55,462 bases of DNA from a virus (lineage: Duplodnaviria > Caudoviricetes), in the IMG/VR virus record IMGVR_UViG_3300028388_004387, positions 1 to 55,462 of that record; one strand, given 5' to 3'. The notes under the pieces were generated by a model, which was not told the origin of the DNA, did no database searches, and was given only the letters and a program-made list of their open reading frames with translations. Shown here piece by piece: positions 4,254 through 55,462 of the stretch. Each line of letters opens with the position of its first letter. Position 1 is the first letter of the stretch. The position numbers and the translations under genes were made by a program.

Positions 4254-4465
4254 ATTTTGACTTTGCAGCGCGTAAAAGCGGACCGGCTACCCTGCCTGGA
4301 CGTAATATTGGAGCATGCCATAGGCTACATGAGAGGCCGAACAACGAGAGCGCTGCACAGGTTTTGGGTAAAGACCTGACCATATGCTTGTTATGGCATG
4401 CTAAAGGGCGCGCAAGCTGCGAGAGTGCTATGCGCAGGCAAATGTGTCTGCGATATTCAGCTTGA
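4250..4465 (+). CDS. Small hypothetical protein
   Basis: 71-aa ORF ending just before a terminator. Confidence 0.4.
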   Translation: MNFDFAARKSGPATLPGRNIGACHRLHERPNNESAAQVLGKDLTICLLWHAKGRASCESAMRRQMCLRYSA

Positions 4466-4470
4466 TTTGG

Positions 4471-4505
4471 GAGCCGGGTGCAGGGATGACACTCGGCTCT
4501 TTTTT
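4471..4505 (+). terminator. Intrinsic terminator
   Basis: GAGCCGGGTG-loop-CACTCGGCTC followed by a T-run, directly before a promoter cassette. Confidence 0.8.
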
Positions 4506-4521: not shown

Positions 4522-4556
4522 ACTTGCATAGTAAAGTAAAGCACTTTATATTTGTA
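4522..4556 (+). promoter_or_regulatory. Repeated early promoter/operator cassette, copy 1
   Basis: ACTTGCATAGTAAAGTAAAGCACTTTATATTTGTA; -33-like TTG and -7 TAtaTTTG (4547-4554); inverted repeat TAAAGT-N5-ACTTTA in the spacer. Confidence 0.85.
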
Positions 4557-4862: not shown

Positions 4863-4924
4863 TAAAACAAGCTGCGCAGCTTCTGCATAAGCGCTGGAGC
4901 TGCGCGCTTATTAAACTAAGCCAT

Positions 4925-5703: not shown

Positions 5704-5738
5704 ACTTGCACAGTAAAGTAAAGCACTTTATATTTGTA
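5704..5738 (+). promoter_or_regulatory. Repeated early promoter/operator cassette, copy 2
   Basis: ACTTGCACAGTAAAGTAAAGCACTTTATATTTGTA. Confidence 0.85.
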
Positions 5739-5981: not shown

Positions 5982-6034
5982 ACACAATTTTCAACCCGGG
6001 GGGCGTACAGCGCCCTCCACAATACCTTTATCAA

Positions 6035-6977: not shown

Positions 6978-7012
6978 ACTTGCACAGTAAAGTAAAGCAC
7001 TTTATATTTACA
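6978..7012 (+). promoter_or_regulatory. Repeated early promoter/operator cassette, copy 3
   Basis: ACTTGCACAGTAAAGTAAAGCACTTTATATTTACA; upstream AAAATTTAAAATCTTTTTGGAAGAT shared with copy 2. Confidence 0.82.
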
Positions 7013-7047: not shown

Positions 7048-7311
7048 ATGAATCCACAAGTAAAAGTATCTTTCGCAGACAATCAAGTTACCACTACCTA
7101 CACAGCAGGAAACGCAGTCCTAATCGTTAAGCAGGACACAAAGTATAACACAAGCATAATAACCATGCAGCACATGTACGGTAGGTTTCAAGCTGTAAAA
7201 GCAGCATGCAGCCCACAGGAGGCTTCTTACATTATGTCAAACTTCTTGAACAATGAGCTGAAAGAGGCACACGGAGCTCTTAAGTGCTGCGACGGAGCTG
7301 AATTGTTTTAG
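7048..7311 (+). CDS. Hypothetical early protein, paralog of 55020-55307
   Basis: Shared GNAVL.VK, H...RFQ, S.QE....MS.FL, AH.A.K...GAE. Confidence 0.8.
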   Translation: MNPQVKVSFADNQVTTTYTAGNAVLIVKQDTKYNTSIITMQHMYGRFQAVKAACSPQEASYIMSNFLNNELKEAHGALKCCDGAELF

Positions 7312-7371
7312 TCGAAACGCGCATTGCTGCGCGTCTACGGGAATAAGCCTACCCGTACTGAAGAGACAGGC
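7311..7371 (+). ncRNA. Hammerhead ribozyme, type II, with pseudoknot
   Basis: GTC-GAAA-CGCGCA(TTGC)TGCGCG-TC-TACGGG(AATAAGCCTA)CCCGTA-CTGAAGA-GAC-AGGC; all core nucleotides and stems I-III present; loop GCCT can pair with 3' AGGC; predicted cleavage after GUC at 7335. Confidence 0.92.
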
Positions 7372-7397
7372 AATAACAAACAAACAATCAAACAGTC

Positions 7398-7697
7398 ATG
7401 GGAAAAAATTTAAGAGTTACAATCAAAGAGGAAAGAGGCATGCGCACCAGCGTCCTTTGGACGCGATACACGCAGGACAAGCTTGGATTTGAAATTCGCG
7501 GGCACAGCTTAGGTGGACAGATGTTCATTTGCAGGATGCTTGAGGAGTGGGAGCCAGACGATGAATGCGACCAGTACCGCTTTGGGAAAATTGACGAAAT
7601 GGGCTTGCTCCCTTATGAGGTAGCGTACTTGCTGGACACGGTACAAGACAAAGGTATGGAAGCTGCGCACACGTTCCTTAAAAGCTTAAACCGATGA
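7398..7697 (+). CDS. Hypothetical protein
   Basis: 99-aa ORF with an AC-rich leader just downstream of the ribozyme. Confidence 0.75.
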   Translation: MGKNLRVTIKEERGMRTSVLWTRYTQDKLGFEIRGHSLGGQMFICRMLEEWEPDDECDQYRFGKIDEMGLLPYEVAYLLDTVQDKGMEAAHTFLKSLNR

Positions 7698-9674: not shown

Positions 9675-9732
9675 TAAAGAGCAGGGGTAGGCGCGCCAGC
9701 GCTTGCTTCTTTGTTTGGTTACATTAACAGTT

Positions 9733-17900: not shown

Positions 17901-20900
17901 AGAATGGACTGAATGGGACGGCAGTAATGTGTGCGGGCACAGCAAGCTACAAGTAAAGCGCGTTATCACTTTTTGTGATGATTGCTGCCCAACGTATTGC
18001 AGCCCGATAAGCGAATGCCAGTGCTGCGATTTGACAGCAGACGCAGGCGCTGATGAAAGTATATGCCCAGGCACTATAACAACGCTCACAGCAACACCTA
18101 CAGGAGGCACAGCGCCCTACACATACGAATGGCAAGACAGTAGCGGTACAACAATAGGCACAACGCAGTCAGTCAACGTAATGCCTGCAAGCACAGAAAC
18201 ATACACGGTGATAATCACAGACGCGCTTGGATGTACTGCACAGGATAGCGTCACCATTACCGTGTACCCGGAGATGGCTTTGAGCGTAAGCGGAGACCCA
18301 GGCCTTGCAATCTGCAACGGCGGAAGCACTGATGTGGAGGTTACAGTTACGGGCGGCACAGCGCCTTTCACTTATGACTGGAGAGAGGTAGGCGGAGGTA
18401 GCTTAGGCACAACCAATCCAATCACCCTTTCCCCTGTTGTCACCACAGACTACGAGGTGGAGGTTACGGATGCAAATGGCTGCTCTAAAATCGAGCTTTT
18501 CACTATTACCGTGTACCCAGCGGTGACAGCAGACGCAGGGCCCGACGTTACAACGTGTCAGGGTACAGTTGTGCTTACGGGTACACCAGGAGGAGGCACA
18601 GCGCCTTACACAGAGGAGTGGGAAGACCCGAGCGGGATAATCACACCCGGCAACCCTTTAACCGTTTCGCCTCCTGTTACGGGCACCTACATTTATCGCG
18701 TAACCGACGCCAACGGATGCACAGCGGAAGATACTTTGCTGCTAACTGCAAGCGCAGGCCCCACTGCTGATGCTGGAGCTGACCAAACCATTTGCCCGGG
18801 CGATACTGCAACGCTATCAGGCAGCGCGACAGGCGGTACAGCACCCTACTCATACGAGTGGTTTGAAGGGGCTGTCAGCATAGGTACAACGCAAAACGTG
18901 AACGTAACGCCAGCAAGCACAACAACCTACACGCTTGAAGTAACAGACGCGAGCGGCTGCATAAGCACTGACACGGTAGAAATAATCGTAGATTCATGCG
19001 CTCCGGCGTGCGGGATTTCGTGCAGCATTGCAACCAACCCAAGCCCTGCGGAAATATGCGAAGGAGATAGTGTTGAGTTCACAGTAACTCCAGCAGGCAT
19101 GACAGGTCCTTACACTTACGAATGGGATGCGGATGGGGGCGGCTTCATGACTGGCTCCCAGACAATGGTGTTCACCTTCGTAAATGCAGGCACGTACACA
19201 GTACAGGCGCGCGTAACTGATGCAAACGGATGTATGACAACGTGCAGCGTAAGCGTTGACGTAGAGGAGCCATTATGCGACCCGGGCGCACAAGCTGCAA
19301 CCGTTTGCCAAGACTCGGGCACATATACGCTTTGGAGCTTGTTGACTTGGCCTTTTCCTTGCACGCCTCCGTCGCCTGCGACAGGGAATTGGTCGCTGGT
19401 AAGCGGAAACGCAAGTTGGTTCACACTTAGCGCCGACGGAGATCCGACTAACGACATTATAGATACCACAGGTATAGCGGGCGGAAGCACAGCAAGCTTA
19501 GACCTTACTCTAACCAATGGCGCATGCGCTGACCTGATTATACGATTAGACATAACCATTCGCTCACAATTCTTTTCCGGGCACCTTGCAGTTACTCCAG
19601 TCATCGATGTATGTGCACTTGGATTTGACGGCAAGGAATTTGACCTTAAAACGGTGTACGACACATGGCTTGCAACGCAAGGGCAGCCGCCAGCCGATGC
19701 GGGAGGAGAGTGGTGCGAGGTGAAATACGATTCTGGGTGCGTCGGTCCCTACACAACAAAGGAGGTAGATGCGGAAAGCACAGGCTGCACAACATACCCA
19801 ACAACCAGCGATATTCTTCCCGGCGGAGATAACCCGACAGTGAACTTCGAGTGTGGCGCACCTAACGACGGATGCTACCGCATAAGGTACAAAGCTCCAG
19901 CTGGAGAGTTGTGCCCAAACGACACAGTCGTAACCTTTAAGAGCGAAACCTGTACGCCAACATGTACAGCTTCCGTAACCATTACCGGAACCTGCTTGCT
20001 TACTGCAAACGTGACAGGCGGATGCCCAGGCGCTACATACCAGTGGCAGAGGTTTGTGGGAGGTAGCTGGTTCAACATTGCAGGGGCTACCAATAGCACT
20101 TACTTAAGCACCGCAAACGAAACGGTGAGAGTGCAAGTTTCATGCACGGATGGGTGTTCTTATACCAGCGCCCCCAGAACCGTTTCATGTGCGCCAGCAT
20201 GTACAGCGACAGCCACAGTCAATCAAAACTGCTGCCTGCTAACATTGATTACCACAAACTGCTCCTCTCAAACACAGCAGTGGCAGGAGTTTGTTGGAGG
20301 TAGCTGGGTGAATATTTCCGGAGCCACAGGAACCACTTTCAACGCCACAGGAAATGGCACCTATAGAGCTGCTGTAAATTGCTCGGGTTGCCCGACTATT
20401 TTTACTGCATCGCGGACGGTAAATATCAACGCTACAATCAGCGAATCAAGCTGCGTACTCACCGCAACCGTGACAGGGTGTACCAGCGTTTCAAACTACC
20501 AGTGGCAAGAGTTTACAGGAGGAACCTGGCAGAATAGAGGAAGCAACCAAAGCACGCACGACATAAGCGGTACCAATAGTACATGGCGGTGCGTTATAAC
20601 GATGGTAGGCGGATGCACATATACCTCCAACACCATATCAAAGAACTGCGTTGTAGCGTGCAGTATCTCCATATCGCTGGTTGAGCTGCCTAACGGAGAT
20701 TTGCGCGCCACTGCAAGCGGCTGCGGCACCTTAGATACTCCTCAATGGACGTATGCTACAAGCTACACTATTCCGGGCTCATGTTCGGGTGCAGGAGGCT
20801 GGTCTGCTGCGACAGGCACAACGGTAACGATAGGTAACGTATCAACGCACACACCTGCCAATGGCGCGCAGTGTTATAGAATTATTTGGAGGTGCTTAGA

Positions 20901-21924
20901 TGGAGCTACATGTATAGACGTTGAAACCATATATGCAGGCCCTTCATGCACCAACACAGTCAACGCAACACGCACAGCGCAGACATGCGATTACGAAATG
21001 TTCGACGAGCACCCGATAACAGGAGGCGCAAACTGGCGAGGGCGAGTGTTTGCAAACGTGTCGGACGCCACAGCTGAAAGGCGCTTTAGGGTTGAGAAAG
21101 ACTGCGGGGGAACGGTTACAACGGTGCTGGATACAACGCGCCTTGTCCCGCTTGCGCTTAGGCATACATATTTCAGCAATGCGTGGAACGAAGGGGACGT
21201 AATTGATTACGTTCGCCTTTACGAAAACGACGGAGCGGGAACAGTTACGGGCCCGATAGATGTGGTAGTGAATGTAAGCTTCACAGCAGGGCAGTCAAAT
21301 GCAACTATACGCACCAACCTTGAAAATGCAATAGAGGGTTGGCTGACGTCAAACTATTCAGCAAGCAACGGCTCAGACTATGAGCTTGAGATAGAGGTGC
21401 AAGGGAGCGGCACGCAGCGCAATGTGTGGATTCATTTCACATGCAGGCACGTGGGGGCGCAAAACTGGTTCGGGATAAACAAGACAGACAGCAACATGCA
21501 AATCACGCAGGTAGGCGGAGCGCTGTTCAATATCCCAGCTACACAACAGGAATGGGAGCGCAGCCCTTTCAATATCCCAGACGTGCAGTACACGCTGCCC
21601 TGCGGTACCGTGCTGCGAGTGCGTGTGCTATTCACAAATCCTCCGGGTATTATTGTAGATAGCAGCAGTAATTTCGATACACTCGTCCCGCTGGACCCTG
21701 CACCTTTCTACTACATACAGGACAGGCTTGGAAGCTGCACAGAACACACGCTGACAGCAAACACCTCCGGCTGCACAGGAACGGAAACCTTCGAGTGGAG
21801 GAATCCAGCCGGCACCGTTATAGGCACAACGCGCAGCATAGTCGTAACAGCAAGCGGCACATATGAGGTGACAGTAAAGTGCCCTGGCTGCCCAGATATA
21901 ACAGACACAGTAACCGTACCATAA
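14941..21924 (+). CDS. Giant Cys-rich tail tip/adhesin protein (2327 aa): N-terminal tail hub-like region plus SprB/PKD-like Ig repeats
   Basis: N-terminal LDL...L.L.K....L.DI...F.VP....N and PLVNYG hub-type motifs; repeats ADAG.D..IC.G...GGTAPYTYEW...TY.V.VTDA.GC. Confidence 0.8.
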   Translation: MSECCLVIEIIEALEHVPSRFYESDGRLILDLDSGSSLSLDKKAEELNDINQISIDVAAPFTVPASDKNFAILREYLNANIWNQNFKPWVVRVTQGGEPLRMRYLYPRAFNEGADSFELILSTDEHWVQKASELRLCDLNLPAIPVSCATWLDKMQNNAQYVDGDDGYWIPLVNYGGQNVLNYVPIEFLRPWYSLLYLLQVGFCQIGFKLSAPALETAFGRRILSYVWSEDYGKDRYVLDKRRASARMTLTDIPPYGQVPFTMVVTEEVGISSQNEIPLNDVLQDESQLLQPKPSGQFGTFTAYTGTGIVEVAIKGYLDNVDYLPASIITNLVLHIRLVKRDQDGNDIPLENHVIPWDPVVAPRLQFNHTFEPAEVLPGEYLFIDVVCDPVGQAFGEGQAFGINMSADFETQRVFFSEGEEIDPSSNISCKDSFLDLVKAAAHLLNAKFDTNLARQEVGMYCPYDVEWYGESVEGYYIEDGEVDDWSDKVQCKSERTTTPENNRERYLNIGFKRSQDKYIDDTLNEDEIDEEFNHIQDLGEQYRDATKSIRNPLFEPTLNGDVLIANQEVQEVLNIPVCWDNEDGEEISYKLGYRLLYAHGWDMQYFEEVAREWFFCLDGASYTSLPLAYQIPNRPTAITGTATTPDIPMWRLTYGASVNSLFNMFYRRIIAETLENYGIEFLIYIDVNMWGFIDFRKRYAINYKDTVLVAWIKEIRDWLPCSDVSTPVAFRGVRESTDCLPDPILALPPGAGFCSGNNPAIVAVRNGSCVDFSIGGVSVSPIVFQEWEYKKASETVFTSFGTNPTANLCTGERTTIKLTVAYDIGPDGSTCEPKTVITVINPCADNRPVGLCESYQNEDGDWCLKAEVGGVIFDPYVEQNFEYSVNGGTTWSSYTSGSELCGLAGTVNFRVTLNWSNDCADTLLEWSCNVEPAILDCDVTDADVTCAEVGGEVCCFEITPSATQFACQVATDVVYWRGTNDGSTWTEWTEWDGSNVCGHSKLQVKRVITFCDDCCPTYCSPISECQCCDLTADAGADESICPGTITTLTATPTGGTAPYTYEWQDSSGTTIGTTQSVNVMPASTETYTVIITDALGCTAQDSVTITVYPEMALSVSGDPGLAICNGGSTDVEVTVTGGTAPFTYDWREVGGGSLGTTNPITLSPVVTTDYEVEVTDANGCSKIELFTITVYPAVTADAGPDVTTCQGTVVLTGTPGGGTAPYTEEWEDPSGIITPGNPLTVSPPVTGTYIYRVTDANGCTAEDTLLLTASAGPTADAGADQTICPGDTATLSGSATGGTAPYSYEWFEGAVSIGTTQNVNVTPASTTTYTLEVTDASGCISTDTVEIIVDSCAPACGISCSIATNPSPAEICEGDSVEFTVTPAGMTGPYTYEWDADGGGFMTGSQTMVFTFVNAGTYTVQARVTDANGCMTTCSVSVDVEEPLCDPGAQAATVCQDSGTYTLWSLLTWPFPCTPPSPATGNWSLVSGNASWFTLSADGDPTNDIIDTTGIAGGSTASLDLTLTNGACADLIIRLDITIRSQFFSGHLAVTPVIDVCALGFDGKEFDLKTVYDTWLATQGQPPADAGGEWCEVKYDSGCVGPYTTKEVDAESTGCTTYPTTSDILPGGDNPTVNFECGAPNDGCYRIRYKAPAGELCPNDTVVTFKSETCTPTCTASVTITGTCLLTANVTGGCPGATYQWQRFVGGSWFNIAGATNSTYLSTANETVRVQVSCTDGCSYTSAPRTVSCAPACTATATVNQNCCLLTLITTNCSSQTQQWQEFVGGSWVNISGATGTTFNATGNGTYRAAVNCSGCPTIFTASRTVNINATISESSCVLTATVTGCTSVSNYQWQEFTGGTWQNRGSNQSTHDISGTNSTWRCVITMVGGCTYTSNTISKNCVVACSISISLVELPNGDLRATASGCGTLDTPQWTYATSYTIPGSCSGAGGWSAATGTTVTIGNVSTHTPANGAQCYRIIWRCLDGATCIDVETIYAGPSCTNTVNATRTAQTCDYEMFDEHPITGGANWRGRVFANVSDATAERRFRVEKDCGGTVTTVLDTTRLVPLALRHTYFSNAWNEGDVIDYVRLYENDGAGTVTGPIDVVVNVSFTAGQSNATIRTNLENAIEGWLTSNYSASNGSDYELEIEVQGSGTQRNVWIHFTCRHVGAQNWFGINKTDSNMQITQVGGALFNIPATQQEWERSPFNIPDVQYTLPCGTVLRVRVLFTNPPGIIVDSSSNFDTLVPLDPAPFYYIQDRLGSCTEHTLTANTSGCTGTETFEWRNPAGTVIGTTRSIVVTASGTYEVTVKCPGCPDITDTVTVP
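18028..19270 (+). repeat. Five tandem SprB/PKD-like Ig repeats (about 80 aa each) inside the giant tail protein
   Basis: Recurring GGTAP(Y/F)(T/S)(Y/E)(E/D)W (GMTGPYTYEW in the fifth) and (V/I)TDA(N/L/S)GC motifs. Confidence 0.8.
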
Positions 21925-36130: not shown

Positions 36131-36505
36131 ATGAAACACTTGTTGCTCTTTTTTATGCTTGCTTGTGCAGTAGCTTGCAAGCCAGCAAGCGAATCGCTCC
36201 AGCTCGATACAGTGCAGCCAGCCTTGCAAAGCGCACCTGCTTACAGTATTGGGCAGCTTGTAGAGATGAGGACGTACAGCGAGGCAAGAGGGCAAAAGGT
36301 TGCAGACGCAGACGGTAATGTAAGCTTTGGCGGGCTGGTTTTCAACATAGATATGATTCAGTATGCAGGCGATACAATGCGCGTGTCAAACGTCATTACA
36401 GAAATGCCGGGCCTAGACCCTTTGCTTTTGCCTTTGTACGAAATGGAAACGGATAACCAGGAGTGGCTTTGGCCTGAGGTTTTTATCAAAAAGAAAGCCA
36501 GGTAA
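36131..36505 (+). CDS. Predicted lipoprotein
   Basis: MKHLLLFFMLACAVA|C lipobox-type signal peptide. Confidence 0.7.
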   Translation: MKHLLLFFMLACAVACKPASESLQLDTVQPALQSAPAYSIGQLVEMRTYSEARGQKVADADGNVSFGGLVFNIDMIQYAGDTMRVSNVITEMPGLDPLLLPLYEMETDNQEWLWPEVFIKKKAR

Positions 36506-36566
36506 ATTTATTAGGGAAGCAGCAGAATTGCTTTTCCGTAAAAGCGGTTTTTAATTAAATTGCAGC

Positions 36567-36836
36567 ATGGACATAATGCAGCTGATTAAACTGGTGAATG
36601 ATTACGGCACACTGCCCGTCTTGGTGTTTGTGTGCTATATTTGTTATAAGATGTTCGTCAGCGAAAGAGCAAAAGCAGACAAGTGCGCAGAAAGAAGATT
36701 TGAGGACATCAAAGAACACACGGACGACACTAAGGCTTTACTGCAAACAACTCTTAAAGCTATCGGCGAAATGCAGCAAGCAAGCAAGCAGGTAGCTGAA
36801 GCGTGCAAAGAGATTAAAGACATTCTGACAAAATGA
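36567..36836 (+). CDS. Single-TM plus coiled-coil protein (holin-like candidate)
   Basis: YGTLPVLVFVCYICY TM segment followed by a charged helix. Confidence 0.55.
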   Translation: MDIMQLIKLVNDYGTLPVLVFVCYICYKMFVSERAKADKCAERRFEDIKEHTDDTKALLQTTLKAIGEMQQASKQVAEACKEIKDILTK

Positions 36837-37201
36837 TTAGAGCGATTTTAAGTCACTTACGGAACGACTATGCTACAGAAATCACGTGGGAAGAAATGCT
36901 AAGCATTAGCAGAACAGAATGGACACAGGTAAGTGAAGGATGCAAGGGCATACGAGTAAGAATGCCCGCTCCAAAAATTATGAGCTTTATCATTAAAATG
37001 GAACCGGGCTCGCATATACCCAATCATTGGCACGAAAAAGTGAAAGAATATTTTACGCTGCTGGAAGGAGATTGCTTTAGCAATATTTACCGGGACATGG
37101 AGACAGGTACTGCATACAAAGTGCATCCAGGTGTAGAGCATAACTTTAGCACAGAAAACGGGTGCTTGCTGCAAATGACTGCGGTACGGGTAGGGAAATA
37201 G
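36833..37201 (+). CDS. Cupin-domain protein
   Basis: PGSHIPNHWH...EYFTLLEG and VHPGVEHNF cupin metal-binding motifs. Confidence 0.8.
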   Translation: MIRAILSHLRNDYATEITWEEMLSISRTEWTQVSEGCKGIRVRMPAPKIMSFIIKMEPGSHIPNHWHEKVKEYFTLLEGDCFSNIYRDMETGTAYKVHPGVEHNFSTENGCLLQMTAVRVGK

Positions 37202-37257
37202 TTGTAGAACACCATGTAAGCCGCTATATTTAACGTCAATCAAAATCATAAAGCTTT

Positions 37258-37743
37258 ATGGAAACCCTAATGAAAATTATCGTACGAACGTTTTTCATGT
37301 TCTACGGAGACAAGCTGAAAGGCGACCGTACTGCGCTTGTAGGAGTGCTGACGGGTATTTTGGCGCTTTGGACAATGATACAAGGCGAGGGACTTTTTCA
37401 AGCGCTGTGCGACTTGGCTGCAAAGATTCCCTTCTTTAGCAAGTTCTGCGACATTGAGTCCACCGTCTATTACAGCATTATGCTGGCGCTGGTAGCAGGC
37501 GTAACAACTGCGCTGAAGTATCTGGACACAAACGAAATGGGCAAGCAGAGGATGATGTCAAGCGGATACACAGAGGGCAATTTTGCTCGGCTCGAAATTT
37601 ATGCCATTGCAGCAGCGCTTATTGTAGTGGCAGCAGTAGTAGTAGGTATATGGAAGATGGGCTTTGCTGCGCTGCTGTTTGGCCTCATTCCTATTTGGCT
37701 ATTGACAAACATATTGGGAGCGATTAAAGCCGCTACCAAGTAA
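37258..37743 (+). CDS. Multi-pass membrane protein (holin candidate)
   Basis: About four hydrophobic segments; LKGDRTALVGVL resembles the LKG.KT start seen in small phage holins. Confidence 0.55.
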   Translation: METLMKIIVRTFFMFYGDKLKGDRTALVGVLTGILALWTMIQGEGLFQALCDLAAKIPFFSKFCDIESTVYYSIMLALVAGVTTALKYLDTNEMGKQRMMSSGYTEGNFARLEIYAIAAALIVVAAVVVGIWKMGFAALLFGLIPIWLLTNILGAIKAATK

Positions 37744-37772
37744 GAAGCTTCATTTCGCATCGTTTGCTTTTA

Positions 37773-37803
37773 GGTGGGTGTCGCATAGGCGCCCACTTTT
37801 TTT
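37773..37803 (+). terminator. Intrinsic terminator
   Basis: GTGGGTGTC-GCATA-GGCGCCCAC followed by a T-run, directly before cassette copy 4. Confidence 0.8.
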
Positions 37804-37821
37804 GTGACTTTTTTGCAGAAA

Positions 37822-37856
37822 ACTTGCACAGTAAAGTAAAGCACTTTATATTTGTA
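37822..37856 (+). promoter_or_regulatory. Repeated early promoter/operator cassette, copy 4 (heads the recombination and DNA-modification region)
   Basis: ACTTGCACAGTAAAGTAAAGCACTTTATATTTGTA, continuing ATGCAATAACGCACAA as in copies 1 and 5. Confidence 0.85.
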
Positions 37857-37889
37857 ATGCAATAACGCACAAGCAACAAACAAACGCAA

Positions 37890-38087
37890 ATGACAACTTC
37901 AATCTTAAACTCGCAGTACCAATCTTACCTTTCATTCCAGCAACGCCTTAAAGAAAATGACTTCCCTTACGACCAGCCGCTCCTTACCAAGGAGGAGTTT
38001 ATCAAAAAGGAGAAAGCAAAAATGGAGAGGTTGCTTAAAGAGGAGGCAGCTCACCAGCGCAGGATAAGGTCTTTAGAACGAAGGTAG
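37890..38087 (+). CDS. Small hypothetical early protein
   Basis: First ORF after cassette copy 4; its TAG overlaps a hammerhead ribozyme. Confidence 0.75.
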   Translation: MTTSILNSQYQSYLSFQQRLKENDFPYDQPLLTKEEFIKKEKAKMERLLKEEAAHQRRIRSLERR

Positions 38088-38146
38088 CCGAAACCTCCTC
38101 CGGGAGGTCTGCTGGAAATAACCTACCAGCACTGACGAGGCAGGTT
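38087..38146 (+). ncRNA. Hammerhead ribozyme, type II, with pseudoknot
   Basis: GCC-GAAA-CCTCC(TCCG)GGAGG-TC-TGCTGG(AAATAACCTA)CCAGCA-CTGACGA-GGC-AGGTT; loop AACCT can pair with 3' AGGTT; predicted cleavage after GUC at 38109. Confidence 0.92.
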
Positions 38147-38262
38147 CCTTATGAAGCAATACAAACAAGACATTTTAGAAACTAAACTACACACCGCCCG
38201 GGAGTCCTACCACTCTCTCAACACCCTTATAAGCTCCCGGGCACTTTAAAATCAAATGCAAT

Positions 38263-39228
38263 ATGGCACAAGAAAAACAGCCGAAAAAAAGTTTTGTGGA
38301 GCGCATGCGCGACAACGTATTAAAGCCCCTGCAAGAGCTCGGGATGGAAAAGGCGCAAGCGGAGGCAGAAATACAATGGGCAGCAGAGCAGATTCTTAGC
38401 TCGGAGCAGCTTTTAAAGTGTTCAGCAAATAGCCTTTTCAATGCTGTGCTGGATACTGCACGAATGGGACTATCTCTTAACCCTTCTCGCGCTGAAGCTT
38501 ACTTAACCACAAAGTGGGATAAGGTGTCTAAATCGGCTAAGGCATATTTAGAGCCAAGCTACCGAGGCTTGACTTTGTTAGCTGCGCAATCTTGCGGAGC
38601 CAAGTACAGCATTGCTCATGTAGTGTACAGCGACGACGATTTTGTTATGCCCAATCTGCTTGACCCAAAAAGCGTTGCGGTTCATAAGCCAAGCTTAAAA
38701 AAGAGCGGAGAGCCTATAGGCGCTTATTCGCAGTTCGTTCTACCTGACGGTACTGCGCTGTTTGAGTACATGACGATTGACGAGATTAAGGAGGTGCGTA
38801 GTGCAAGCCAAGGGTGGCAGGCATTTGAGAAAAAGAAAATACAAGCAACGCCCTGGCACAATTGGTTTGGAGAAATGGCGCGCAAGACAGTAGTAAGGAG
38901 GCATATCAAATACCTACCTAAGTACGAGAACACGAAGTACGAAAAGCTGATGGCTGCTGCAAGCGCGATAGATAGCCAATACGAGTTTGAAAACACTCCG
39001 GTGGTAGTAGCAGCGGATGAGCAGGAGAACGTGCGAGAGAACGCGCGAGAAACGCTTGTGAAGCAAATTACCGAGGGCTTAAGCAAGTGCAGCAAAGAAA
39101 CACAGCAAGAGCTGAAGGAGCTGCTAAGAGAGAAAAAGGCAGCAGGAGAAATCACCTTGCAGCTACTTGAGGCAGTGGCGAAGCAAATAGAGGAAGAAAT
39201 TGCAGAATCAACAAGCACGGAGCAGTGA
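38263..39228 (+). CDS. recT: RecT-family single-strand annealing protein
   Basis: LLKCSANSL.NA....A..GLSLNP...EAYL, SYRGL, VVY..DDF, PW..WF.EMARKTVVRR..KYLP. Confidence 0.92.
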   Translation: MAQEKQPKKSFVERMRDNVLKPLQELGMEKAQAEAEIQWAAEQILSSEQLLKCSANSLFNAVLDTARMGLSLNPSRAEAYLTTKWDKVSKSAKAYLEPSYRGLTLLAAQSCGAKYSIAHVVYSDDDFVMPNLLDPKSVAVHKPSLKKSGEPIGAYSQFVLPDGTALFEYMTIDEIKEVRSASQGWQAFEKKKIQATPWHNWFGEMARKTVVRRHIKYLPKYENTKYEKLMAAASAIDSQYEFENTPVVVAADEQENVRENARETLVKQITEGLSKCSKETQQELKELLREKKAAGEITLQLLEAVAKQIEEEIAESTSTEQ

Positions 39229-39863
39229 AAATCTACGACAACATAGTGCAGGGCACTCCCGAGTGGGACGACATTAGGTGCGGCAAAATCACGGGCTCAA
39301 AAATGAATACTCTAATGCAAAAAGGCGGAGTAGGAGATGACTGGGGAGCGGGAGCTGTGACATACGCCTATGAGCTGGCGGCAGAAAGAATGCTGCTGCG
39401 CAACGAAGAGCCTAAGTTTAACCTGCCGCAATTCCAGCGAGGACATGAGGAGGAGGTGCTGGTGAAAAAGAAGCTGCTTGAGGAGTATTGGGAGCCTATA
39501 CAGGAAGTGGGTTTTATACAGCTTAACGACTACTTTGGCGTGAGCCCTGACGGTATTGTTGGCGGGGAAATATTGCTGGAGTGTAAAAGCATAGAAAGCC
39601 CAAGCAAGTTTCTTCGGTTTGTAGACGAGGAGAAAATACCTAACGACCATTACGCGCAAATGCAGGCGGGTATGTATGCAGGCAACTTTCAGTCTGCGTG
39701 GTACGTGCAGTACAACGGAGCCATGAGGAGCTTTCACCGCGTGATAGTTGCGCGAGATGAAACGTTCGTACAAGACATGGCTGTACGTATTGCAAATTTC
39801 AATCAGTACGTTGACAAGCTTAAAATGGAGCTACATGAAAAGGTACGTCAGGGGAATTTTTAG
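39225..39863 (+). CDS. YqaJ/lambda-type exonuclease
   Basis: QGTPEW...R.GKITGS, RGH..E, GVSPDG, LECK, Y.AQMQ; GTG start overlapping the recT stop. Confidence 0.92.
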   Translation: MKIYDNIVQGTPEWDDIRCGKITGSKMNTLMQKGGVGDDWGAGAVTYAYELAAERMLLRNEEPKFNLPQFQRGHEEEVLVKKKLLEEYWEPIQEVGFIQLNDYFGVSPDGIVGGEILLECKSIESPSKFLRFVDEEKIPNDHYAQMQAGMYAGNFQSAWYVQYNGAMRSFHRVIVARDETFVQDMAVRIANFNQYVDKLKMELHEKVRQGNF

Positions 39864-40311
39864 TGGAGGGCAAATGCGCTTTGATTTTATGCAGCTTACA
39901 CAGCAGGCTGAATCATTGCTAAAGGAAGGAGAGGAGTTTCTTTTAAGTATTGAAAAAGCAAAGCGATGGAAGACGCTTAAACAGTTGCGAGCGTTCCACG
40001 GGCCTGTATGCGAGCAGGTGCAAAGGTACTGGCGAGATGAACATGGAGAGTGGAAGTCGCTTGATAGGGTTAAAGAGGAGCTGAAGGATGAGTTCCTGGT
40101 TAAGAAAAAGCAATACTATGACGATGGTAGTCCTGTTTTGCTTAAGCTTCCGCACCCGAGTCATAAGAATGCAGTATATTTATGGCACCTTGAACAAACG
40201 CCCTCCCTTAAGGATTTGAGCATTGAGGAAATGACTGATTTTATTGAGCAAATAATTAACCACTACTGGCACGAAAAAGGCTGGCAAATAACGATTGAAG
40301 ATGAGCTATAA
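39835..40311 (+). CDS. NinB-like protein
   Basis: KTLKQLRAFHG, LK.EFL, and SLKDLS.EEM.DFIEQI pattern; start chosen at the in-frame ATG 39835. Confidence 0.6.
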   Translation: MKRYVRGIFSGGQMRFDFMQLTQQAESLLKEGEEFLLSIEKAKRWKTLKQLRAFHGPVCEQVQRYWRDEHGEWKSLDRVKEELKDEFLVKKKQYYDDGSPVLLKLPHPSHKNAVYLWHLEQTPSLKDLSIEEMTDFIEQIINHYWHEKGWQITIEDEL

Positions 40312-40567
40312 AAAAGTAGAACAAGCATGCAAAGAAATGTTCCAAAGCAAAGCCTACGACGAGCTTGCTTACGGCACGCAAGGAGTCGCATGGGCGACGT
40401 TTAGACGGACGTGGCAAAACGGCAAGATGGGGCTTCAAAGTATGATTACAACGCTGCGGAAGTTCCATGGCGAAAAGAATGTACAAGTATATGTCAAGCT
40501 TAAAAAGAGAACGCGCAGAGCTGCTCCTAAGCGAGTGGAAGCTATGGACAGTCGTGCTGAAGGATAG
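40301..40567 (+). CDS. Hypothetical basic protein
   Basis: About 88-aa ORF from the ATG at 40301. Confidence 0.6.
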   Translation: MSYKKVEQACKEMFQSKAYDELAYGTQGVAWATFRRTWQNGKMGLQSMITTLRKFHGEKNVQVYVKLKKRTRRAAPKRVEAMDSRAEG

Positions 40568-40805
40568 CTTCGAGCTTGACGGAGTTAAGTATGCAGCATT
40601 TCACGGAGAGTGTAGACTGGAGGATAGGGGCGGCAAGTGCTTTCTAATAGTAAAGGGAAGCGTAGGAGAGCTGGTGGTTGCTTTGAGCAATGTTGCAGAC
40701 ATGAAGTTTGGCAGCAATAAAACGTCAAAAGCAAACGTCTTAAACCTGTGCAGCACACAGGACAATCAAAACAATAAACCACAAAAAACCAATGACAACG
40801 ACTGA
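40467..40805 (+). CDS. Hypothetical protein (start uncertain)
   Basis: 112-aa ORF filling the gap before queE. Confidence 0.5.
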   Translation: MAKRMYKYMSSLKRERAELLLSEWKLWTVVLKDSFELDGVKYAAFHGECRLEDRGGKCFLIVKGSVGELVVALSNVADMKFGSNKTSKANVLNLCSTQDNQNNKPQKTNDND

Positions 40806-41595
40806 AATTTTAGGAAAAGAAAAAGCACCTATCAGCGAGTATTTTTACAGCTTGCAAGGCGAGGGGAGGTACACAGGATACCCAGCATTTTTTGTTCGGT
40901 ACCGCGGGTGTAACCTACTGTGCGGAAGGGACATGAAAACAGATAGCGAGCACCCAGACGCTGAATGGGAGTGCGACACCATTGACGTATGGCGCAAGGG
41001 CAAGATGATGACGAACAAGGAGCTGGTAGACAAAATGAACGAGGAATTTCAGTTCATTGACAGGTTGTTTAACCAGGACGCGCACCTTATCCTAACAGGC
41101 GGAGAGCCGCTTTTGCACATGCGCAGGCTGGAGTGTTTCATAGAGTATGTAGACGGCTTATTGGCAGACGAATCGTTCCCACACTTTCACACGCCTTTCG
41201 TGGAAATAGAAACCAACGGCACAATCACTCCAACAGAGTATTTGCTTAGGCGTGTAAACCAGTGGAACGTCAGCGTCAAGCTGCATAACAGCGGCCAGCC
41301 TTTAGATATGCGAGTGATAGACGATGCCTTAGAAACATTTGCACAAGCGTCAAGGGTTGCAGGTTCAGTAGATTTAAAGCCCGTCATAACACATCCAAAC
41401 GACATTTTCCAGGTGCAAGAAATTGTTGAGAAATACGGCTGGAGCGAAAGCAATGTCGTTCTAATGCCAGGAGGCAGCACGCAGCAGCAGCTTGACGAGA
41501 ACAGCAAGTTGGTTGCAGAGCAGTGCAAGGCGTTTGGGTACAGGATGAGCAGCAGATTACAAGTTATAATCTGGAATGAAGTAACCGGAGTTTAA
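40792..41595 (+). CDS. queE: 7-carboxy-7-deazaguanine synthase (radical SAM)
   Basis: FYSLQGEG...G.PAFFVR..GCNL.C...W.CDT, LTGGEPLL, IETNGT, LMP.G, S.RLQV.IW. Confidence 0.93.
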   Translation: MTTTEILGKEKAPISEYFYSLQGEGRYTGYPAFFVRYRGCNLLCGRDMKTDSEHPDAEWECDTIDVWRKGKMMTNKELVDKMNEEFQFIDRLFNQDAHLILTGGEPLLHMRRLECFIEYVDGLLADESFPHFHTPFVEIETNGTITPTEYLLRRVNQWNVSVKLHNSGQPLDMRVIDDALETFAQASRVAGSVDLKPVITHPNDIFQVQEIVEKYGWSESNVVLMPGGSTQQQLDENSKLVAEQCKAFGYRMSSRLQVIIWNEVTGV

Positions 41596-41641
41596 ATAGG
41601 AAAATCAAGTAGTAAACTTTATCTTAGCACAAACAGGAAAT

Positions 41642-42490
41642 ATGGATAAGACAAAATTAAGTTGGAACGACGTCGCCAGGATGGCTGACAACCTTAAAGC
41701 AGTGATTGCTCAAAAGGTACCTCGCCCTAAAGTGTACCCGGTACCGCGAGGAGGTATCTATGCTGCATTGCTGCTCGGGTTCGAAATAGTAGACAGCCCA
41801 GACAAAGCCAATGTCATAGTAGACGACTTGATTGATAGCGGCAGCACTAAAGCACAGCATGAAGTGCTTTACCCAGACAAACCTTTCTACGCTTTATTAA
41901 CAAAAGCACACGACGACCTATGGATAGAGTTTCCATGGGAGCGCAACCAGCGCAATCCGCACGAGAGCGTCACAGACAATGTATCGCGAATACTGCAATA
42001 CCTGGGAGAAGATGTAAGCAGAGAAGGGTTGCTTGAAACGCCAAAGCGATACATAAAAGCCATGGAGGAGTTCTTAAGCCCTCCGGAGTTCAACATGACA
42101 ACTTTCCAAGCAGACAGCCAGGACATGATAATTGTCGATAATATCACATTTGAAAGCATGTGTGAGCACCACTTGTTCCCTTTCCATGGAGTAGGCCATA
42201 TTGGATACATACCCACAGACAAGATGGTCGGCATAAGCAAGATTCCTCGCACGCTGGAGCTGTTTAGCAGACGACTGCAAAACCAAGAGCGGATAGGCTC
42301 TCAAGTTGCAGACCACCTAATGCACCACCTGCAACCAAAGGGCGTTATTGTCATTTTAGAGGCTGCTCATATGTGCATGTGCATGAGGGGAGTGAGGAAG
42401 CCTGGCGCAATGACTAAGACAAGCGCTTTGCGAGGCTTGTTTTGCACTGACAGCGATTTACGAAATGAGTTTTTACAGCTAATCAAATAA
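41642..42490 (+). CDS. folE: Fusion of Gpt-like purine phosphoribosyltransferase and GTP cyclohydrolase I
   Basis: N-terminal VPRGG, VIVDDLIDSGST, WIEFPWE; C-terminal REGLLETPKR, SMCEHHLFPF, GISKIPR, RRLQNQER, HMCMCMRGV. Confidence 0.93.
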   Translation: MDKTKLSWNDVARMADNLKAVIAQKVPRPKVYPVPRGGIYAALLLGFEIVDSPDKANVIVDDLIDSGSTKAQHEVLYPDKPFYALLTKAHDDLWIEFPWERNQRNPHESVTDNVSRILQYLGEDVSREGLLETPKRYIKAMEEFLSPPEFNMTTFQADSQDMIIVDNITFESMCEHHLFPFHGVGHIGYIPTDKMVGISKIPRTLELFSRRLQNQERIGSQVADHLMHHLQPKGVIVILEAAHMCMCMRGVRKPGAMTKTSALRGLFCTDSDLRNEFLQLIK

Positions 42491-42492
42491 GC

Positions 42493-43044
42493 ATGGAAAA
42501 GATAGTAGAATGGGTGCCCGTACCCGGTTTTGATAAGTACGAGTTCAACAAGTACGACGGGCAAATCAGACAAAAGAAAAACGGCAAGGTGCTTGAAGCA
42601 AGCACAAAAGGATGGACTGTAAGGCTAAGAACCAGCGACGGTAGCCGTAAAACCGTTTCTCCGGCGCGTCTCGTGCGCGAAGGGGATTGGCCCTGGAAAA
42701 CTATCCCGGAAGGCATAAAAGCGCGAGAGAACGCAAAAGAGCCCAGCGAGAAGCCAAGTAAGAAGCAAACAAGGATTGAGCGTGACGGAGTAAGGGCGCG
42801 CAAAGCAAAAGGTCAAAAGCTTGTTCCGCGCAGCGCAGCTCCAGCCAAGCCCAAGTATGACGAGCGGACAAAGCGAAAGGTAAAGCTCAACCCTTTGCTT
42901 GCAAAAAAGATAAGAGGACTGCGCAAGGAGGGATGGTACTTAAGGGAAATCGCAGAAGAGTTTGGTGTGCATGTTAGCACGGTAAGCGAAATCTGCTCAA
43001 ATAAACTTTACAAAATCATTAAAACCACAAAACAAGATGGCTAA
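42493..43044 (+). CDS. NUMOD4-like N-terminal domain plus C-terminal HTH DNA-binding protein
   Basis: EWVPVPGFDKYEF...GQIR; IRGLRKEGWYLREIAEEFGVHVSTVSEI; no HNH motif between them. Confidence 0.7.
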   Translation: MEKIVEWVPVPGFDKYEFNKYDGQIRQKKNGKVLEASTKGWTVRLRTSDGSRKTVSPARLVREGDWPWKTIPEGIKARENAKEPSEKPSKKQTRIERDGVRARKAKGQKLVPRSAAPAKPKYDERTKRKVKLNPLLAKKIRGLRKEGWYLREIAEEFGVHVSTVSEICSNKLYKIIKTTKQDG

Positions 43045-43441
43045 AGCAGAAGGAATGAGCATCCCTTTTGAAGGGAAGGAAGCAATTATGAAAGACGTCC
43101 TTGAAACGTTTGAGTACGGAGGGGATATGTCGCAAATTATCAAAACTGAAACGCACGAGTTTAGCGCAGTATGCCCTTTCAGCGGCTTACCAGATATCGC
43201 TACGCTGCGCATTCATTATCGTCCAACCGCCAACATGTGCGTGGAGCTTAAAAGCTTGAAGTATTACACCATGTCTTACCGCAACGTAGGCCTCTACCAG
43301 GAGCATGTAACCAACGAAATTTTCAACGACATGCTGAAGTGCTTAGGCGTATCTCCTAAGGACCTGTATGTGTACACGAAGTACAATGTGCGCGGAGGCT
43401 TTTACACGGAATGTGAGCTTGGAAACAAGGAGCTGAAATGA
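43037..43441 (+). CDS. queF: NADPH-dependent preQ0 reductase
   Basis: EF.AVCPFSGLPD (catalytic Cys/Asp), QueF motif ELKSLKYY, QE..TN, RGG. Confidence 0.9.
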   Translation: MAKAEGMSIPFEGKEAIMKDVLETFEYGGDMSQIIKTETHEFSAVCPFSGLPDIATLRIHYRPTANMCVELKSLKYYTMSYRNVGLYQEHVTNEIFNDMLKCLGVSPKDLYVYTKYNVRGGFYTECELGNKELK

Positions 43442-44169
43442 AATACTTTTTCAGCAGCCCTTCCGGGCTAAAGAAAATCCTGGAACCTGGGGGCGCTCGA
43501 AATTTCCTGCTGAGCTATGCAGTAGACGCAAAGCACTGTAAGAAATTTGATGATATCAGCGACAGCGTTATCATTGATTCGGGCGCCTTTACGGTTTGGA
43601 ACAGGGGCGAGGGGGACATAGATATAGAAGCCTATGCAGATTTTTGCCTTACGCTTCCACAGGATTGGACGTTCATAAACGTGGATGTGATTCCCGAAAC
43701 AGGCAGCACAGCAGCAGACATTGAGCGCTGCTGTGAGCGCGGATACGAGAATTACAAATACCTTAAAAGCAGGATACAAAATATCATGCCGGTGTACCAC
43801 TATGGCGACAACCAGAAGTGGCTAAAAAAGTTTATGGATGAGGCGGATTACATTGGCATAAGTCCAGCCAACGACACCCACGAAAATGTCAAGCGCCAAT
43901 TCCTAAAAGAGACCTATGCTATTTGCGGCACAGACGTAAAGACTCACGCGCTTGGATACAGTAGCTTGGTTGGGCTTAGCATGTTTCCATTTTATAGTGT
44001 AGACAGCATTTCGTACAAGCGAGTGAAAGTGCTTGTTGACGGGAGTGCAAAAGCGCTATTGGTTGCAGGGGATATGAGGTACCTCGGTATTAAGAGTATC
44101 CAGGAATATTTGTACATAGAAAAATACATGACAGAGTTATGGGAAAGCAGGGGAGTTACCTGGGATTAG
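43438..44169 (+). CDS. dpdA: DNA 7-deazaguanine transglycosylase (TGT-like)
   Basis: LLSY, IDSGAFT, DVIP, MPVYHYG, YIGIS, HALG, PFYSVDS; short TGT-fold protein inside a que cluster. Confidence 0.85.
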   Translation: MKYFFSSPSGLKKILEPGGARNFLLSYAVDAKHCKKFDDISDSVIIDSGAFTVWNRGEGDIDIEAYADFCLTLPQDWTFINVDVIPETGSTAADIERCCERGYENYKYLKSRIQNIMPVYHYGDNQKWLKKFMDEADYIGISPANDTHENVKRQFLKETYAICGTDVKTHALGYSSLVGLSMFPFYSVDSISYKRVKVLVDGSAKALLVAGDMRYLGIKSIQEYLYIEKYMTELWESRGVTWD

Positions 44170-44618
44170 AAACTATCAATCTGAGCGAGGTGCAGCTAAG
44201 CGATAATTGGTTTATGCTGCCCAAGGATGCTGGGAAAATGTTCTTAGCTGCATACACATCAGAACCGGAGCTGTTTGACTTAAGGGTAGCTGAAATAGAC
44301 GGGGCATATTATGCTCTGGAAGGAGATGCTCTTTTTGCTACGCTGCTAAAGTACAAACAGTATGAAGCGCGCTGCCATGTTTACAAAGTAGACAGCCACG
44401 AAAAACTGGTAGAAATTAAAGCGATTAGACAAATCGCAAAGCCTTTTGTAAATTACGTTCAAATCGCTATTGACTTTAAAGAGGTCAGCGATAAGCTGGG
44501 CTTGAAAAAGAAGTACAGCAAAGGAGGTAAATTGTACGAGGATGTGTGCTTGCTTAGCGAGTACGATTGGGAAAAAATTTACCAGGAGCAAACAACGAAT
44601 CAAACTTCACTTTTTTAA
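44139..44618 (+). CDS. Degenerate ParB/Srx-like N-terminal domain protein
   Basis: ETINLSEV, LRVAEIDGAYYALEG, and C.V...D pattern; lacks the usual G.HR; sits next to dpdA. Confidence 0.45.
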   Translation: MGKQGSYLGLETINLSEVQLSDNWFMLPKDAGKMFLAAYTSEPELFDLRVAEIDGAYYALEGDALFATLLKYKQYEARCHVYKVDSHEKLVEIKAIRQIAKPFVNYVQIAIDFKEVSDKLGLKKKYSKGGKLYEDVCLLSEYDWEKIYQEQTTNQTSLF

Positions 44619-44629
44619 AATCAAAGAAC

Positions 44630-45358
44630 ATGGAAAAACATGCGAAACAGAAAGGAGCTTTAGTGCTGCTAAGTGGCGGGCAAGATTCAGTCACTTGTCT
44701 GTACTATGCTTTAGCATATTACGACAAGGTAGCTGCGCTAAGTTTTGACTACGGTCAAAAGCACGCTAAGGAGCTGGAGTATGCGGAAAGCTTGTGCAGC
44801 GACTTACAGGTGCCCTTCAAGCTCATTTCTGTAAAAGGAGTATTTGGCGAAAGCGCACTAACCAACCACGAGCTTGATGTGGATGGGATGCACCAGGTGA
44901 ACGAAGGGCTGCCTGCTACATTTACAGCAGGAAGAAACATGACTTTTCTTTCTATTGCTTGTGGGCTTGCGCACAGCATGGGCATGCCTACAGTCATCAC
45001 AGGGATATGCCAAACAGACTTCAGCGGTTACCCAGACTGCCGAGACAGCTTTAGAGCAGGTATGGAAATTACTGCACAGCTTGCACTTGACAACCCTGAC
45101 ATGAGGATACTGGCGCCCTTAATGTACAGAACCAAAGCTCAAACATGGCAGCTGGCAGGCGACTTGACAAAGCGATTTAAGGAGCTTGGAAAAGAAGGGG
45201 AGTTGTGGGATGTTGTAGAAGTGGTTCGTACGCGCACGCTTACTGACTACAACGGAGACCTGACGCAAAACGAATGGGGCTTAGGCAAAGCCGACAACCC
45301 TGCCAGCAGGCTTCGCAAAAAAGGGTACGAGGAGGCGAAAGAGAAAGGGTGGGTGTAG
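44630..45358 (+). CDS. queC: 7-cyano-7-deazaguanine synthase
   Basis: LLSGGQDS.TCL, FDYGQKH..E, P.TF..GRN..FL, G.CQTDFSGYPDCR, APLM..TK. Confidence 0.93.
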   Translation: MEKHAKQKGALVLLSGGQDSVTCLYYALAYYDKVAALSFDYGQKHAKELEYAESLCSDLQVPFKLISVKGVFGESALTNHELDVDGMHQVNEGLPATFTAGRNMTFLSIACGLAHSMGMPTVITGICQTDFSGYPDCRDSFRAGMEITAQLALDNPDMRILAPLMYRTKAQTWQLAGDLTKRFKELGKEGELWDVVEVVRTRTLTDYNGDLTQNEWGLGKADNPASRLRKKGYEEAKEKGWV

Positions 45359-45405
45359 CAGCACCTACCAAGCATCATTAAGGTATAAACCAAAAGCAAC
45401 AGCAA

Positions 45406-45840
45406 ATGAAAACCAAAGCAATAAGATACCACGACATCTGTGCAGGGCATCGCGTACACAATCACGAATCAAAGTGTGCGCACTTGCATGGACACAACTA
45501 CCGTTTCCACTTTACGGTAGAGGCGTTCAACGAGGATGAGCCGCTTGACGAAATTGGGCGCGTGCTTGACTTTAGCGTTATCAAGTCAAAGCTTGCAATG
45601 TGGCTTGAGGAGAATTGGGACCACAAGTTCTTAATCTGGGAGAAAGACCCGCTCTCTCGCGTTTTAAAAGCAGCGGACCAGGATGGCGTGGTGATTGTGC
45701 CGTTTAACCCGACAGCGGAGAATATCGCCCGTCATTTCGTAGATGTGGTTGCTCCTGTGCAGCTTGCGGGAACGCGCTGCAAGTTAACGGGGTGCAAAAT
45801 TGAGGAGACTCGAAAATGCAGCGCCTACTATGGAGAATAA
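45406..45840 (+). CDS. queD: 6-carboxytetrahydropterin synthase
   Basis: AGHRV....KC.HLHGHNY, DFS.IK, DHKFL, NPTAENIA, EET. Confidence 0.93.
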   Translation: MKTKAIRYHDICAGHRVHNHESKCAHLHGHNYRFHFTVEAFNEDEPLDEIGRVLDFSVIKSKLAMWLEENWDHKFLIWEKDPLSRVLKAADQDGVVIVPFNPTAENIARHFVDVVAPVQLAGTRCKLTGCKIEETRKCSAYYGE

Positions 45841-54950: not shown

Positions 54951-54985
54951 ACTTGCACAGTAAAGTAATTGGCTTTATATTTGTA
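54951..54985 (+). promoter_or_regulatory. Repeated early promoter/operator cassette, copy 5 (variant spacer)
   Basis: ACTTGCACAGTAAAGTAATTGGCTTTATATTTGTA. Confidence 0.85.
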
Positions 54986-55019: not shown

Positions 55020-55307
55020 ATGTCAAACGTCAAAGTAGAAATCAAAAGAGAGCAAACTTACACAGGTAGCTACATAACCACAACAAGGTACCAAGTAGGT
55101 AACGCAGTCCTGTTCGTTAAAACTGCAAACGAGGAGTCAAGCAGCAAGCTTATAATCAAGCACTTGAATAACAGGTTCCAAGGACATAGCGGAAGAACTT
55201 CACAACAAGAAACCGCACGCGTAATGAGCTTGTTCTTAAGCGGCGACATCGCGGCAGCACATGAAGCAGTCAAATCCAGCTACGGAGCAGAAGCTTTGCC
55301 AAGATAG
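55020..55307 (+). CDS. Hypothetical early protein, paralog of 7048-7311
   Basis: Shared motifs with 7048-7311; first ORF after cassette copy 5. Confidence 0.8.
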   Translation: MSNVKVEIKREQTYTGSYITTTRYQVGNAVLFVKTANEESSSKLIIKHLNNRFQGHSGRTSQQETARVMSLFLSGDIAAAHEAVKSSYGAEALPR

Positions 55308-55326: not shown

Positions 55327-55361
55327 ACTTGCATAGTAAAGTAATTGGCTTTATATTTACA
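55327..55361 (+). promoter_or_regulatory. Repeated early promoter/operator cassette, copy 6 (variant spacer)
   Basis: ACTTGCATAGTAAAGTAATTGGCTTTATATTTACA; drives ORF 36-260 across the junction. Confidence 0.82.
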
Positions 55362-55363
55362 GC

Positions 55364-55462
55364 ACAATAACAAACAATAACAAACAAAAACAAACGTCAT
55401 GAATCAATTTAGAGAAACTTTTGAGGAGCTTACTTGGGAGCTAACAGGTACAGTAATAGTAG
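55364..55462. repeat. Terminal direct repeat, right copy
   Basis: Identical to bases 1-99. Confidence 0.95.

Follow-up and report, generated by a model that had tools for sequence, protein, structure and literature searches.

A genuine type II hammerhead ribozyme, carrying in its sequence all the defining features of the class, lies at 38087-38146 on the + strand of a phage genome, between a short leader ORF and the recT operon. Its first base is also the last base of the stop codon of the leader ORF, an arrangement that recurs in other viral hammerheads. In our judgment the element probably acts by intercistronic self-cleavage, separating the leader-ORF message from the recT/deazaguanine/replication operon. 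The window analysed here is the whole of an IMG/VR virus record (55,462 bp, a complete record; GC 48%). Essentially all long ORFs of this 55.5-kb genome lie on the + strand, and an exact direct repeat of 99 bp is present at its termini (window positions 1-99 and 55364-55462). The terminal repeat starts within a CA-rich leader and takes in the start of ORF 36-260. No tRNAs were found in the window. The ribozyme, its parts and the ORF preceding it are the following.

37890-38087, + strand: leader ORF of 65 codons (ORF65), TAG at 38085-38087
38087-38146, + strand: type II hammerhead ribozyme, from Rfam, covariance model R1, fold and pseudoknot
38087-38089 (GCC) with 38139-38141 (GGC), + strand: stem II, 3 bp, open
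38090-38093, + strand: GAAA core
38093-38098 with 38103-38108, + strand: stem III, 6 bp, UCCG loop
38109/38110, + strand: predicted self-cleavage site, from the GUC triplet position in the Rfam and R1 alignments
38110-38115 with 38126-38131, + strand: stem I, 6 bp, 10-nt loop
38120-38124 (AACCU, loop I) with 38142-38146 (AGGUU, tail), + strand: pseudoknot, 5 bp
38132-38138, + strand: CUGACGA core

In the Rfam and R1 alignments, the catalytic core C3-U4-G5-A6-N7-G8-A9 and G12-A13-A14 is present as CUGACGA (38132-38138) and GAA (38090-38092). The A15.1-U16.1 pair is formed by A38093 and U38108, which make up the outer pair of stem III, and is followed by C38109; this residue occupies position 17, where any base other than G is required, and completes a GUC cleavage triplet. 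The minimum-free-energy fold consists of exactly the three hammerhead stems, with loops capping I and III and with II open. The folding energy itself is unremarkable (z = -1.55; 17 of 200 shuffled sequences fold equally well). The pseudoknot linking loop I to the tail after stem II, for which at least 4 bp are expected, comprises 5 bp.

The Rfam model RF02276 (Hammerhead_II) aligned with the element end to end at 36.6 bits, 0.4 short of the gathering threshold of 37, with E-values of 4.8e-6 locally and 7.6e-4 over the whole window; at gathering thresholds Rfam gave no match anywhere in the window. The second model, R1, was a covariance model made from 119 distinct hammerheads of other viral contigs, with the window sequences excluded. 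It scored 65.0 bits at 38084-38148 and 64.5 bits at 7308-7374, R1 and the survey both having been seeded by a pattern from the two window copies, so that 22 positions agree by construction. Over both strands of the genome these were the only two such matches, the next best reaching 13.1 bits. A pattern of the core without the stems matched 6 times against 5.7 expected, which is not above chance, indicating that the signal is carried by the stems. The canonical cores, the three stems, the pseudoknot and the scores of 36.6 and 65.0 bits together bear out the initial annotation of 38087-38146 as a type II hammerhead.

The other R1 match corresponds to a sister element placed behind an ORF of its own.

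7048-7311, + strand: 87-codon ORF (ORF87) upstream of the sister hammerhead, behind promoter copy 6979-7009
7311-7371, + strand: sister hammerhead, predicted cut 7335/7336, R1 score 64.5 bits

An Rfam search of 7200-7500 at E <= 10 did not return the sister hammerhead. The two copies had been described as sharing one layout with fully covarying stems. The layout is indeed common to both, and every in-helix difference between them is compensatory (seven pairs in all: stem III has three, stem I two, and stem II and the pseudoknot one each); the remaining pairs are identical, so that the word "fully" went too far. The spacing between the two hammerheads is 30.8 kb, and excision or circularisation between them is implausible at that distance. 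Products of this kind, between hammerheads, were sought and went undetected in the part of the study by Perreault et al. considered here (PMC3088659). ORF87 has a paralogue in the first ORF behind promoter 54952 (55020-55307; 41% identity over 71 aa, E = 1e-16); of the pair, ORF87 alone is followed by a ribozyme on its 3' side.

A further reading takes the motif to be catalytically dead, or to be carried along neutrally without effect on expression. We hold this to be highly improbable: the catalytic core is free of deviations, the helix differences from the 7311 copy all preserve pairing, and the pseudoknot needed for fast cleavage is retained. What speaks for inactivity is the score of the 38087 element, slightly below the Rfam threshold, together with the finding, in the part of the report of Perreault et al. 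at hand, that some hammerhead candidates are inactive (PMC3088659).

Viral contigs were scanned with a pattern fixing 22 core and helix-end bases; at least 120 stretches were recovered, and 119 distinct sequences were aligned. In these 119 sequences, among the matches listed, the positions left free by the pattern were paired in 99.0% of cells as against 76.9% in shuffles, and pair changes on both sides occurred in 316 cells as against 93, with none of 500 shuffles reaching 316. Mean pseudoknot length, again among the matches listed, was 5.07, compared to 3.86 and 3.67 in two controls. By these measures of covariation the surveyed set is a real ribozyme family; the helices of the 38087 element covary both with its sister, in the seven pairs given above, and within this survey (316 versus 93 among the matches listed). 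Two subclasses, differing in stem II and pseudoknot, can be told apart in the alignment of the 119 sequences listed. The first has stem II GUC/GAC and places the pseudoknot on the 3' part of loop I; both window copies belong here. The second has stem II GC/GC and tail AGCC, with the pseudoknot on the 5' part of the loop. Five loci on other viral contigs (L012, L036, L046, L068 and L100) hold two hammerheads 0.3-1.5 kb apart around single small ORFs, a spacing that corresponds to the clustered arrangement described in 2011 and differs from the 30.8 kb of the present genome.

At the 5' end of the 38087 element, G38087 is at once the last base of the ORF65 TAG and the first base of stem II. The initial annotation had both hammerheads of the genome starting at the last base of the TAG that closes a short ORF, and this is what we find, with ORF65 at 38087 and ORF87 at 7311. 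ORF65, ORF87 and a 32-codon ORF downstream of the ribozyme matched no PHROG or Pfam family, save for a weak match of ORF87 to phrog_33211 (E = 0.009). The annotation had also called for a survey of this overlap in other phage hammerheads. For this purpose the junctions of 121 non-redundant type II hammerheads from other viral contigs, among the matches listed, were analysed. A stop triplet stands at -4 (TAA or TAG) or -5 (TGA) from the CGAAAC core in 82 of the 121 listed matches (TAA in 36, TAG in 34, TGA in 12). In 70 of the 121, still among the matches listed, the frame closed by the stop extends over at least 60 codons or reaches the contig end. As background for the 70 of 82, stop triplets taken at random from these loci, on the same strand, close such frames in 715 of 5,971 instances (12%), and the overlap thus recurs far beyond chance in the matches listed (70/121 versus 12%). 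Collapsing the matches listed by similarity of the upstream 300 nt left the junction in 46 of 87 clusters. Judged by these alignments, the stop-codon junction is real and general, and not peculiar to this phage.

The longest nearby frames gave a concordant picture. An ORF of at least 40 codons ends within -60 to +12 in 109 of the 121 matches listed. In the same longest-frame analysis of the matches listed, the stop starts at -4 in 51 cases, at -5 in 19 and at -7, -6 or -3 in 16, and falls inside the ribozyme in just 2. Upstream ORFs have a median length of 92 aa (78 clusters among 110) and downstream ORFs of 101 aa (84 clusters among 119), while the next ORF begins a median of 24 nt past the hammerhead core, all these figures referring to the matches listed. 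A PHROG tally of 117 downstream ORFs, also among the matches listed, yielded mostly families of unknown function and no common theme. Intercistronic placement is, on this sequence survey, the rule for the hammerheads examined. No stop is found at -4 or -5 in 39 of the 121 matches listed, and only 19 of those 39 keep the A at -3; it is therefore mostly the stop codon that shows up as a conserved A at the start of the Rfam model. In the literature searched we found no description of a stop-codon overlap of hammerheads, although paper supplements might contain revealing alignments; the main text of PMC3088659 has no occurrence of stop codons.

One way to account for the overlap is a ribozyme gated by translation. 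A ribosome stopping at the TAG (38085-38087) would cover stem II together with the 5' strand of stem III, and translation of the leader would then decide whether and when the ribozyme folds; what happens to the recT operon RNA would in turn depend on the leader being translated. The presence of the stop codon within the first ribozyme bases both here and in 70 of 121 others among the matches listed is in keeping with this model, as is the interchange of TAA, TAG and TGA (36, 34 and 12 among the matches listed). It could further draw on the behaviour of the base at -3, whose weak retention in the stop-less cases among the matches listed (19/39) ascribes it to the stop codon and not to RNA structure, and on the accumulation of stops as close to the invariant core as they can come. 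In a compact genome, however, pressure towards deletion would also drive stops to that limit. Gaps between same-strand genes in the surveyed loci have a background median of 8 nt, and 39 of 121 hammerheads lack a stop at that spot, both figures again among the matches listed. Since the stops gather as near to the invariant core as is possible without touching it, the overlap may reflect maximal packing alone, and tight packing by itself could be a sufficient source of it. We consider it quite unlikely that a stopping ribosome gates the ribozyme, and equally so that leader translation determines the fate of the recT operon RNA. Were it the case, leader translation would set the rate of self-cleavage and the fate of a 17-kb recT-to-terL message, and phage type II hammerheads would be translation-sensing switches instead of passive cut sites. 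The stop codon in the first ribozyme bases is best explained by the ribozyme filling the entire intergenic gap.

The region in which the 38087 element lies, and the units related to it by a common repeat, are set out below.

4523-4553, 5705-5735, 6979-7009, 37823-37853, 54952-54982 and 55328-55358: near-identical copies of a promoter-like repeat
4869-4909: hairpin without U tract after the first ORF of promoter unit 4523, -26.1 kcal/mol, z -3.67
5998-6018: hairpin without U tract after the first ORF of promoter unit 5705, -17.4 kcal/mol, z -3.74
37772-37798, + strand: terminator-like hairpin, 11 bp and a T run, closing the preceding structural/lysis block, -18.4 kcal/mol, z -3.69
37823-37854, + strand: promoter-like repeat of 31 nt, one of the six copies, ending in TATATTTG
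38151-38249, + strand: 32-codon ORF opening with an ATG 4 nt past the pseudoknot, coding status uncertain

The TATATTTG at the end of the 37823 repeat fits TAnnTTTG, which we take to be the consensus of the Bacteroidota -7 box. The 6979 and 37823 copies, each followed by a hammerhead unit, are identical, and each of the six repeats precedes a CA-rich leader ending in ...AAACGTCATG. All six lie in the non-structural arc, which begins at 37.8 kb and continues across the genome ends as far as 9.7 kb. No copy occurs in the structural block (9814-37743), which has a strong hairpin on either side (9683-9710 and 37772-37798). This distribution fits an early-type class of promoter, if not demonstrably in timing, and the cassette would be early as judged from its gene content alone. 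What comes after the first ORF differs among the six units: two have a hammerhead, two a stable hairpin without a U tract and one an 8-nt gap, while in the remaining unit the next promoter follows. A weak Rfam match to SdsR_RyeB at 4436-4505 (23.7 bits, gathering threshold 38) was rejected, the sequence being only a terminator-like hairpin with a T run; it stands before promoter copy 4523. Between the ribozyme and recT, within the 32-codon ORF, there is a hairpin at 38196-38242 (10 bp, 38196-38205 with 38233-38242, and a 27-nt loop).

It had been proposed that promoter, short ORF and stop-fused ribozyme make up a module. In this genome both copies do stand behind the same repeat and a short ORF, and the stop junction recurs in other phages. 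The promoter, in contrast, did not hold up as a general part of the module. A gap of at least 80 nt before the upstream gene is found in 15 of 42 other hammerhead cases, among the matches listed, versus 158 of 741 background junctions (odds ratio 2.05, p = 0.035, with crude gene calls), and within this genome a ribozyme follows 2 of the 6 repeats.

The genes to which the argument refers are these.

9814: tape measure protein
22989: head maturation protease
38263-39228, + strand: RecT-like annealing protein, first large gene of the downstream operon (phrog_148, E = 5.3e-45)
39225, + strand: exonuclease
39868, + strand: NinB
40792, + strand: QueE
41642, + strand: FolE
43438, + strand: tgt/DpdA-like gene
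44567, + strand: QueC
45406, + strand: QueD
45800, + strand: replication initiator
47080, + strand: NinG
50352, + strand: SSB
50789, + strand: TerL

RecT, the exonuclease, NinB, QueE, FolE, the tgt/DpdA-like gene, QueC and QueD all lie 3' of the ribozyme, in agreement with its having been placed upstream of recT and the DNA-modification genes. The interval 40792-45840 holds a full 7-deazaguanine DNA-modification set: QueE, a FolE whose N-terminal part resembles phosphoribosyltransferases, another GTP-cyclohydrolase-like protein, the tgt/DpdA-like gene, QueC and QueD. In the structural block, an ORF of 2,327 aa (14941-21924) located 3' of the tape measure gene contains tandem DNA repeats of ~240 nt at 18084-19144 and 20035-20338. 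By tblastn, the best match of TerL is to a Flavobacterium phage (43% identity) and that of RecT reaches 33% identity. Searches for a close relative were negative with blastn of 36500-42500 against GenBank phages, with RecT against viral contigs or metagenome contigs, and with QueE against viral contigs (IMG/VR), and none turned up when the promoter repeat was used as a pattern in viral contigs.

The hairpins in the sister units raise the question of whether the ribozyme is attenuator-like, its main role being to end the leader message and to lower the amount of downstream RNA through faster decay, in the manner of a partial terminator. Two sister units do have hairpins in the equivalent slot. 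These hairpins lack U tracts, hence are no clear terminators, and the 5' end of the downstream fragment would bear a hydroxyl group and a stable hairpin, both of which are commonly associated with protection of RNA. Moreover, 17 kb of essential genes rely on the 37823 promoter, and between 37854 and 54952 the repeat does not recur. We consider an attenuating role unlikely.

The reading that we favour, intercistronic processing, can be laid out as follows. Presumably the element is transcribed and cleaves in vivo. A + strand transcript starting at the promoter-like repeat 37823-37854 would carry the hammerhead, which, once its 3' part to 38146 had been transcribed, would fold with the aid of the loop I/tail pseudoknot and cut itself between C38109 and U38110. 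Hammerhead cleavage leaves a 2',3'-cyclic phosphate, here on C38109, and a 5'-OH, here on U38110. Since the two halves would then be joined by the 3-bp stem II alone, they should separate. The upstream product would be a message of ~250 nt for the 65-aa leader ORF, whose 3' end, 22 nt past the stop codon, would consist of the stem III hairpin and a cyclic phosphate. The downstream product, with the stem I hairpin and a 5'-OH at its start, would encode RecT, the exonuclease, NinB, the 7-deazaguanine and replication functions and TerL. In this way two parts of one transcription unit might gain separate ends and separate stabilities or translation; cleavage at 38109/38110 may thus serve to process the transcript, with effects on RNA stability and expression. 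The plain hairpins in the same slot of the sister units seem to do the same job. This suggests that ribozyme and hairpins share one purpose, to let the RNA of the first ORF and that of the remaining unit go separate ways.

The arrangement offers a natural comparison within one genome, six near-identical promoter units having a hammerhead in two, a hairpin in two and nothing in two after the first ORF. A 2019 review still describes the role of hammerheads in bacteria and phages as undefined (PMC6765202), and the contrast between hammerhead, hairpin and nothing could show what the ribozyme adds. The stop-codon junction, seen in over half of the surveyed hammerheads among the matches listed and mentioned nowhere in the literature searched, provides a handle on a possible interaction between translation and cleavage.

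In other respects the 38087 element is an ordinary member of the hammerhead family known since 2011. As far as the parts of the sources at hand go, it resembles RF02276 and the examples of PMC3088659 in its core, permuted topology, stem II of 2-3 bp, pseudoknot between loop I and the 3' tail, and position between phage genes on the coding strand. Clustered prophage hammerheads were reported there to cleave in vitro and in E. coli, and hammerhead processing of long polycistronic phage transcripts was proposed in the same 2011 study (PMC3088659). The cases described in that part form prophage clusters flanking single genes or short blocks, whereas the present phage has two copies 30.8 kb apart, each behind a common promoter repeat and a short first ORF. 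In Desulfovibrio vulgaris three type II hammerheads cleave in vivo, their cleavage fragments having been caught in total RNA by cyPhyRNA-seq (PMC8782182). They too are of type II and lie near phage-like genes, but they are chromosomal, belong to another phylum and, in the part of that report at hand, are described without a link to a promoter or stop codon. A crystal structure of a pseudoknot-hammerhead (PMC11300833) was set aside as a parallel; its architecture is another one, in which the pseudoknot replaces helix II, and the bases 5' of stem II are not treated.

Closer to hand, the hairpins at 4869-4909 and 5998-6018 share with the ribozyme the slot directly after a first short ORF and the same promoter repeat. 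They differ in having no catalytic core, so that a host nuclease would be needed for cleavage, or else they would act as 3' stabilisers only. In synthetic insulators of the RiboJ type, a hammerhead sits downstream of one transcribed region and ahead of a gene, and the downstream message thereby gets a fixed 5' end formed by a hairpin. These insulators were engineered from a type III hammerhead of satellite RNA and are not natural phage elements; their comparison with the 38087 hammerhead is by function only.
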